Below are positions 1 through 1,197 of a DNA stretch of 1,197 nucleotides, piece by piece. The stretch comes from a phage. The stretch is taken from sequence record OR846209.1; one strand, given 5' to 3'. The translations under genes were made by a program, and so were the position numbers. How positions within the stretch are numbered: the stretch's first letter is position 1; each line of letters begins with the position of its first letter. The notes beneath the pieces are model-generated. The model worked only from the letters and a program-made list of their open reading frames with translations. It ran no database searches and had not been told where the DNA came from.

Positions 1-58
1 CGTCAATCCAGTCGATAACCTCAAAAGTCGAAGGATGGTAGTACACATATTTAGTCAT
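1..58 (-). CDS. 5' end of a downstream minus-strand ORF (3'-truncated by window edge); function unknown, by position a candidate tail-fibre assembly/chaperone or other accessory gene
   Basis: ATG at 58..56 lies 4 nt after the tail-fibre stop. Hand translation of the minus strand gives MTKYVYYHPSTFEVIDWID... open to the window edge. Only 19 codons are visible, and I do not recognise the N-terminus as a classical Tfa (lambda Tfa / Mu U / P2 G) start. The region is AT-rich. Confidence 0.35.
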   Translation of the reverse strand, partial: MTKYVYYHPSTFEVIDWID

Positions 59-62
59 ATTT

Positions 63-68
63 TCACCA
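63..68 (-). promoter_or_regulatory. Putative ribosome-binding site (TGGTGA on minus strand) for the downstream ORF, overlapping the last codon and stop of the tail-fibre gene
   Basis: Minus-strand sequence ...TTCATGGTGAAAATATGACT...: GGTG core at 67..64, about 5 nt spacer, ATG at 58..56. Weak Shine-Dalgarno match; arrangement fits translational coupling. Confidence 0.3.
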
Positions 69-1197
69 TGAAATTTTTACAAAACCATCAGAACCGCGCC
101 CACCAGAATATCCAGATATCGCGGAGCGCGTATTTTGGCTCAATGACGCACCACCACCACCACCAGCTCCATAGCCATCGGCATTTCCTCCGTTTGCAAA
201 TGCAGCCGCACTGCCGCCTGTGCCAAAGGCCGAACCCACACCAACCCCTCCTGGAGATGATTCGGTAGATGTAAATTCTGCTATTTTGCCGCTGCTACCT
301 AATCCGCCTTTAGCAGTGATATTAATAAAAGATGAGTCGCCTCCATCAAGCCCTAGTTCACCTGCATCCCCTTTAATTAGCGTATGGCCTTGTCCATTAG
401 GACCAATAGATGTTCTATCTTCATATGAACGTACAAAACCGCCGCCTCCACCTGAACCTCCAGCCCCAACAGAAACCGTATAAGTTTTTTTAGATGTCAC
501 ACCTATAATGGCAATTTTTAATTCTCCATGATTACCTCCCCTACCAGCTGAATAGGCATTAGTCTTATCGGGATCAGGAGTACATCCACCACCACCTCCT
601 CCACCACCTCCTCCCAGCATTTCAACAAAAACCTGCGTTACCCCATCAGGCACAGTAAAAGTCCCATTAGCTGTAAAAAACTGGTATCGAGGCCCGTTTG
701 AAGCTGCCGTATTTGCCAGATTCAGTGCCGCATTCGCCTTATCCATCGCCGCTTTCACCGCGCTCGGCGTCGCCGCCTCCGTCGTACTGGTGCTGTCGGT
801 GGCGTTATTAAGCTTCACGATCCCTTTTTGCGTTAGCGTACCGTCCGGGGTGCCGGTGATCTGCCCCCAGGCGTGAGTATGGCTGGCCGGGGCCGCCGCA
901 CTCGCCTTATCCATCGCCGCCTTTACCGCACTGGGCGTTGCCGCTTCTGTGGTACTGGTGCTGTCCGTCGCGCTGTTAAGTTTCACGATCCCTTTTTGCG
1001 TCAGCGTACCGTCCGGGGCGCCGGTGATCTGCCCCCAAGCGTGTGTATGCCTAGCCGGAGCCGCCGCACTCGCCTTATCCATCGCCGCCTTGACCGCACT
1101 GGGCGTTGCCGCTTCGGTGGTGCTGGTGCTATCGGTGGCGTTATTAAGCTTCACAATCCCTTTTTGCGCCAGCGTGCCGTCCGGGACACCGGTAACC
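63..1197 (-). CDS. Phage/prophage tail fibre protein, 3' portion (5'-truncated by window edge): repeated shaft motifs plus glycine-rich C-terminal distal domain
   Basis: Minus-strand ORF in the six-frame track (63..1154, 363 aa) ending at TGA (63..65). The 'M' at 1154 is a GTG that corresponds to Val in the internal repeat motif GIVKLN. Hand translation of 1155..1196 in the same frame gives ...VTGVPDGTLAQKGI with no stop, so the gene continues upstream past position 1197. The repeat motif GIVKLN(N/S)ATDSTSTTEAATPSAVKAAMDKA...HTHAWGQITG matches my memory of enterobacterial phage tail-fibre repeats (the Pfam Phage_fiber_2 type); not verified by search. Confidence 0.88.
   Translation of the reverse strand, partial: VTGVPDGTLAQKGIVKLNNATDSTSTTEAATPSAVKAAMDKASAAAPARHTHAWGQITGAPDGTLTQKGIVKLNSATDSTSTTEAATPSAVKAAMDKASAAAPASHTHAWGQITGTPDGTLTQKGIVKLNNATDSTSTTEAATPSAVKAAMDKANAALNLANTAASNGPRYQFFTANGTFTVPDGVTQVFVEMLGGGGGGGGGGCTPDPDKTNAYSAGRGGNHGELKIAIIGVTSKKTYTVSVGAGGSGGGGGFVRSYEDRTSIGPNGQGHTLIKGDAGELGLDGGDSSFINITAKGGLGSSGKIAEFTSTESSPGGVGVGSAFGTGGSAAAFANGGNADGYGAGGGGGASLSQNTRSAISGYSGGRGSDGFVKISW
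66..725 (-). other. Glycine-rich C-terminal distal domain of the tail fibre (putative receptor-binding tip)
   Basis: After the last repeat the protein becomes unique: ...RYQFFTANGTFTVPDGVTQVFVEML-GGGGGGGGGG-CTPDPDKT...VGAGGSGGGGGF...GLDGGDSS...KGGLGSSGK...PGGVGVGSAFGTGGSAA...GYGAGGGGGASL...GYSGGRGSDGFVKISW. Multiple poly-Gly blocks are separated by short non-Gly segments. Position at the C-terminus of a tail fibre is where receptor-binding domains normally sit. Function is inferred, not demonstrated. Confidence 0.6.
584..613 (-). repeat. (GGN)10 codon tract encoding a 10-residue poly-glycine run
   Basis: Plus strand reads tccaccaccacctcctccaccacctcctcc, i.e. ten consecutive Gly codons (GGA/GGT) on the coding strand, directly between the ...TQVFVEML segment and CTPDPDKT... 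Confidence 0.85.
726..1197 (-). repeat. In-frame tandem repeat array, unit 168 bp / 56 codons, about 2.8 copies in window (array open at right edge)
   Basis: The string cgccttatcc recurs at 735, 903 and 1071 (spacing exactly 168 bp). Hand alignment of unit 735..902 against 903..1070 shows about 20 mismatches in 168 (about 88% identity). Encoded peptide units are nearly identical (differences N/S, A/T, R/S). Similarity decays below about 726. Confidence 0.92.

Follow-up and report, generated by a model that had tools for sequence, protein, structure and literature searches.

That tail fibres combine a constant shaft with a variable tip, next to a co-located assembly gene, is textbook knowledge dating from the comparisons of P2, Mu and lambda. 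The mosaics of P2 gpH/gpG, Mu S/U and P1 S/U were reportedly set out by Haggard-Ljungquist et al. 1992 and Sandmeier 1994. In the S gene of Mu and P1 the variation at the constant/variable junction is programmed, and in Mu this boundary is that between Sc and Sv. Fibre polymorphism is also known from tailocins, in the form of the Prf15/Prf16 subtypes of R-pyocins (PMC6363177), and exchange at the fibre locus was described for the carotovoricin of Pectobacterium (PMC13195805). For cyanophage Pam3, a chaperone was described in which a variable N-domain binds the tip domains and a conserved C-domain trimerises (PMC9608196).

The window analysed here, which is the whole stretch of 1,197 nucleotides in record OR846209.1, holds the 3' part of a tail-fibre gene on the minus strand and the first 19 codons of the gene that follows it. 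The features to which we refer are these:

63..1197, minus strand: 3' part of a P2 gpH-type tail-fibre gene, 377 codons plus a TGA stop at 63-65 (open reading frame and translation, Pfam).
727..1193, minus strand: repeat shaft, a direct-repeat family with 2.8 copies of a 168-nt (56-aa) Phage_fiber_2 repeat (TRF score 724; GC3 ~0.73).
1003..1013, no strand: second mosaic breakpoint, inside the shaft (mismatch positions, segment blastn).
680..760, minus strand: the seam between shaft and tip (GC3 change point at 680-743; LT2 identity ends with a first mismatch at 756; E. coli similarity ends at 733-736).
687..725, minus strand: alternative 13-aa linker LNLANTAASNGPR, which replaces the usual inter-repeat APA(N/S)H(S/T)H (alignments).
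585..686, minus strand: conserved tip N-terminus of 34 aa, YQFFTANGTFTVPDGVTQVFVEMLGGGGGGGGGG, with a (GGN)10 run at its end, 585-614 (TRF).
122..584, minus strand: hypervariable tip core, comprising the remaining predicted TNF-like strands and the glycine-rich loops (allele comparison, fold assignment).
160..167, minus strand: Chi octamer GCTGGTGG, read on the sense strand, within the codons of a conserved GAGG motif.
66..121, minus strand: conserved C-terminal end of the tip, ...SGYSGGRGSDGFVKISW, with 80-100% nucleotide identity to several other alleles.
1..58, minus strand: first 19 codons, MTKYVYYHPSTFEVIDWID, of a DUF4376 gene of 201 aa in full, which starts 4 nt after the fibre stop.

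Across the seam, the minus-strand translation reads ...AVKAAMDKA and then NAALNLANTAASNGPRYQFF.... The fibre in the window matches PF03406 (Phage_fiber_2) in three stretches with 173 bits, against a cutoff of 22. The match to PF21722 (Gly_rich_2) scores 25.4 bits for the window fragment (cutoff 24.3), 23.9 for the full-length protein of the relative L001 and up to 54 in relatives, and Rfam gave no match on the window. L001 is 97.6% identical to the window gene and encodes a fibre of 589 aa, in which the N-terminal collar domain is followed by four Phage_fiber_2 repeats and then by the Gly_rich_2 tip. The collar domain (PF12571, 206 bits in L001 and in L023) lies outside the window, and in these two loci the fibre gene comes directly after the gpJ/gpI baseplate genes (Baseplate_J and Tail_P2_I).

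According to the explanation we favour, and which taken as a whole we consider quite probable, the window takes in the distal end of a fibre gene that belongs to a P2/Mu-like contractile-tail cluster on the Salmonella chromosome, namely the 'Def4' prophage remnant. Def4 is a 20-kb prophage remnant whose name is attributed to Casjens 2011 (PMC5322425); our view of the Salmonella cluster covers its distal half, the 20-kb extent being taken from that paper. The cluster adjoins rluF/yjbD and has gtrABC inserted between two baseplate genes, V and W. In LT2, the orthologue of the fibre gene is STM4200; it is in use as a serovar marker (PMC6201931), and the published STM4200 primers and probe match the tip of the LT2-type allele. 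In E. coli, a counterpart is found between yjbD and lysC; in the RefSeq annotation it contains contractile-tail and lysis genes and is devoid of capsid, packaging, replication and integrase genes. A Mor-type activator is also present in this E. coli counterpart.

An earlier note, made from the letters of the window alone, had proposed a sharp compositional junction at 700-760 as the seam at which a foreign receptor-binding module was joined to a conserved shaft. Its hand counts of GC were exact (63.1% for 903-1070, 43.9% for 271-600 and 53.8% for 63-270), and the junction is real: the maximum-likelihood change point of GC3 lies at 716-734, with a 2-lnL support interval of 680-743 and a log-likelihood ratio of 41.6 that was reached in 0 of 2000 permutations. 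GC1, GC2 and GC3 are 0.565, 0.61 and 0.727 in the shaft, and 0.578, 0.605 and 0.26 in the tip. Since the first two positions are nearly equal and only the third drops, the difference is purely synonymous and is not explained by amino-acid composition. The proposed shift in glycine codons was also confirmed, with GGC/GGG making up 8 of 11 in the shaft and GGA/GGT 41 of 59 in the tip. GC3 is 0.56-0.68 in the backbone and in the flanking chromosomal genes, so that the tip, and not the shaft, is the outlier. The AT-rich zone extends beyond the fibre stop, about 100 codons into the DUF4376 gene. In all alleles from Salmonella and E. coli, GC3 is 0.54-0.76 in the shaft, 0.22-0.34 in the tip, 0.26-0.33 in the N-terminal half of DUF4376 and 0.59-0.66 in its C-terminal half.

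That the tip is AT3-rich in every allele, and that its poly-Gly runs use GGT/GGA and avoid GGG-GGG, could mean that the GC3 drop comes from coding or selection on glycine-rich tips and not from a different ancestry; avoidance of G/C runs in poly-Gly, slowing of translation for folding, or H-NS silencing might be behind it. We consider this distinctly unlikely. The shift is just as strong when glycine codons are set aside (GC3 of 0.72 in the shaft vs 0.23 in the tip without Gly, Met and Trp codons; Fisher p = 3e-17), the low GC3 reaches into the N-domain of DUF4376, which is not glycine-rich, and the step in composition coincides with a step in synonymous divergence. Furthermore, a related tip is joined to a different shaft in the capsid-encoding phage P0007 (locus L027), which also supports the mosaic reading. 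The GC3 of this tip is 0.53, and that of the tip and DUF4376 pair is at a native 0.53-0.60; AT-richness is thus not required by the fold.

The seam is also a break in ancestry, as shaft and tip have no co-linear set of shared nearest relatives, and this supports the reading of the junction as a mosaic seam. In 47 E. coli genomes the DNA match is limited to 733-1195, at about 78%. The LT2-type allele is 100% identical to the window in the final 63 nt of the repeat, as far as position 757, and 44-80% identical beyond it. The first 34 residues of the tip are the same in the LT2 protein, with pS = 0.76, which is saturated; identical residues with saturated synonymous sites mean that the ancestry of the tip is far older than that of the shaft. 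At the other side of the zone, DUF4376 identity rises to 95-100% at codon ~100, the same point at which GC3 rises. STM4200 of S. Typhimurium LT2 is like the window gene in chromosomal locus, gene order, shaft, tip fold and downstream genes, with last-repeat DNA equal to that of the window over 63 nt, and unlike it in the linker (APANHSH vs LNLANTAASNGPR), the tip core (41% identical) and the N-domain of DUF4376 (60% identical).

Whether the tip deserves to be called foreign has a divided answer. Composition and history agree with the term, but the type of domain does not, as the same Gly_rich_2 fold with the end ...GFVKISW is present in every Salmonella and E. coli allele of the fibre. A donor lineage for the AT-rich tips was not found in the contig scan, the plasmids or the phage collection, which makes foreign origin a deduction from composition. 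The scan of genome contigs gave a single match, in an unrelated alphaproteobacterial MAG (33% over 87 aa); tblastn against plasmids gave no match; and the phage collection contained one matching contig, 6 kb long and unverified.

Comparison with relatives (about 11 alleles, which are not a population sample) revealed breakpoints near 1008, 756, 600 and 122 and at DUF4376 codon ~100, between which the linker, the tip core, the C-terminal end and the DUF4376 N-domain reassort independently. By segment blastn, positions 1-1007 of the window are 100% identical to L001, and 1008-1197 are 90% identical to it and 99.5% identical to an LT2-type allele, at an offset of about one repeat unit. The copies of the 168-nt repeat are 88% identical to each other; concerted evolution among shaft repeats can blur or mimic breakpoints within the shaft. 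The linker LNLANTAASNGPR occurs in four loci belonging to two allele types (L001, L015, L019 and L023) and is missing in the others. The tip core falls into at least 6 types among relatives, with 31-60% amino-acid identity and essentially no nucleotide similarity. In DUF4376, alleles of different type are 33-61% identical over the N-terminal 100 aa and 80-100% identical over the C-terminal 98 aa.

The single seam at 700-760 that had been proposed is real as an upstream edge, but it is one of at least five breakpoints in the population, and the zone it opens continues into DUF4376. The simplest reading of the earlier note is one clean swap, in which a single cassette of tip and cognate chaperone N-domain was joined to the shaft exactly at 726-735; this seems unlikely to us. 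It agrees with the comparisons to LT2, to L007/L010 and to the E. coli alleles, where the divergent zone begins and ends at the two GC3 steps. However, L019 and L023 match the window co-linearly across 700-760, with 93-100% identity, and do not diverge until about 600; they also carry the DUF4376 N-domain of the window allele despite having another core. In L019, whose similarity to the window runs on through 700-760 to about 600, the linker, tip N-terminus, C-terminal end and DUF4376 N-domain are 97-100% identical and the core 46%. L020 and L016 have the converse combinations, L020 joining the LT2 DUF4376 N-domain (99%) to a different core (44%). In addition, the closest relative of the window switches at about 1008 and not at 730.

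Many draft contigs break inside the repeats, as would be expected if the junction were an assembly chimera at a repeat boundary. Nevertheless the same junction is present in independent records (L001, 100% over 1-1007; L015, about 96% over 1-726), and the linker and tip N-terminus recur in L019 and L023-L026, on contigs of up to 794 kb, making a chimera extremely improbable. Programmed diversification, by a Gin/Cin-type invertible segment or a diversity-generating retroelement, is brought to mind by the S fibre of Mu, which aligns to the last repeat and the linker (LNLANTAASNGPR pairing with its AMDNANARLAKDRNG), and by the position of the junction, which resembles the Sc/Sv boundary. No inverted repeats flanking the tip region and no second, inverted copy of tip and chaperone were found; the gene lists of the loci contain no invertase or reverse transcriptase; and there is no pair of template and variable repeats, direct repeats being limited to those of the shaft and to the poly-Gly runs. 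With inverted repeats, recombinase, reverse transcriptase and template repeat all missing, we rejected both mechanisms and regard programmed diversification as very improbable.

The tip is predicted to fold as a TNF-like beta-sandwich carrying a lattice of extended glycine-rich loops, similar to Pam3 gp24; the AF2 model (pLDDT 86, pTM 0.81) is that of a monomer, and the native state is probably a trimer. In this model the conserved tip N-terminus forms the first beta-strands, with the breakpoint near 600 at its 3' end, and the linker LNLANTAASNGPR is outside the folded tip (pLDDT 49 for tip residues 1-10). Among 30 tip homologues all 8 of the 8 invariant columns are glycine, and the segments between them are variable. 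In an exhaustive HMMER search, the tip had one cluster of close relatives and 243 distant ones of the Gly_rich_2 type. A sequence search of the PDB returned only the Mu S fibre, which matches the repeat, and nothing for the tip or the DUF4376 protein.

The DUF4376 gene, with its start codon at 58-56, follows the fibre gene directly and has the same orientation. Its product is presumably a folding chaperone of the fibre whose N-domain would grip the tip, because of the gene position, the modular conservation, and relatives in which a Caudo_TAP (PF02413) N-domain is joined to the same DUF4376 C-domain. In Pfam the protein matches DUF4376 (PF14301) only, with no match to Caudo_TAP. Its AF2 model, built via the homologue P0154, matched none of the known fibre chaperones specifically in structure, TfaMu and Pam3 gp25 included. 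The N-domain and the tip core do not vary strictly together, and this loose association weakens a simple lock-and-key cassette picture.

With these results on anatomy, composition, breakpoints, reassortment and predicted fold in mind, we propose that the zone from the end of the last repeat (~756) to DUF4376 codon ~100 would come from an allele pool that is old and AT3-rich and whose members are exchanged between strains through homologous recombination. The upstream edge of the exchanged zone would be the seam at 680-760, placed in an unstructured linker ahead of the folded tip, so that joining two modules there would disturb neither fold. Exchange would be piecemeal. The shaft repeats would supply homology and, together with the first 34 aa of the tip and the poly-Gly run that ends them, serve as crossover arms; further arms would be the ...GFVKISW end with the start of DUF4376, and the DUF4376 C-domain. 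That these conserved stretches act as arms would account for the reassortment of linker, tip core and DUF4376 N-domain. The tip core is presumably the specificity determinant, its variable loops probably setting the target; the diversity is probably kept because host range or killing range is under selection, and the AT-richness may reflect foreign or old ancestry. The Chi octamer was also considered as a signal and set aside: its expected number is 0.04 and at least one occurred in 9 of 200 shuffles. One or two are present in each of the Salmonella tip alleles examined, but once the conserved Ala-Gly-Gly motifs and the AT3 codon usage are taken into account, a single site per tip exceeds expectation only weakly.

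One may further speculate that the Def4-type cluster and its E. coli counterpart at yjbD-lysC are a domesticated tailocin, whose killing spectrum is set by a combinatorially evolving tip of the TNF-like, glycine-rich type. According to this speculation, which is possible yet rather doubtful, old AT-rich sub-modules (linker, loop core, C-terminal end and chaperone N-domain) are kept by frequency-dependent selection and shuffled at DNA joints that code for conserved glycine motifs, Chi sites being encoded in some of these joints. If true, glycine-rich scaffold motifs would double as recombination arms. A literature search found no report of a Salmonella tailocin or of particle killing at the Def4 locus.

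Our results provide a base-resolution map of natural cut and rejoin points in a Salmonella fibre gene and place its tip in a structurally understood receptor-binding fold. The map accounts for the success of STM4200 as a serovar marker and, since alleles move by recombination, for the places where this marker will fail; it also helps in reading serovar-linked variation at Def4. Known natural joints are also useful for engineering fibres or tailocins of new specificity.

The seam is a case of classic, well-documented tail-fibre mosaicism, and involves no new mechanism or kind of element. As in the fibres of P2, Mu and P1, a constant N-terminus and shaft are followed by a variable C-terminus and an adjacent assembly gene, swaps take place among unrelated phages, and GC contrasts at the junction; unlike these, the window fibre has a TNF-like, glycine-rich tip, a DUF4376 partner in place of Caudo_TAP, and no invertible segment. 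R-pyocins and carotovoricin share with it a tail cluster chromosomally fixed at a conserved site, a varying fibre C-terminus and neighbouring gene, and variants swapped by homologous recombination via conserved flanks, whereas the Salmonella/E. coli cluster is known here from its genes alone and carries gtrABC in Salmonella. The gp24/gp25 pair of cyanophage Pam3 (PDB 7YPX/7YFW; PMC9608196) differs in its short helical shaft, which is not built of Phage_fiber_2 repeats. The T2/S16-type gp38 adhesins (PDB 6F45; PMC12032242), which were not among the top structural matches of the tip model, likewise use conserved glycine-rich motifs as a scaffold for hypervariable segments that putatively choose the receptor; gp38, however, is a separate monomeric protein sitting on the gp37 fibre, whereas the tip domain of the window is fused to its fibre.

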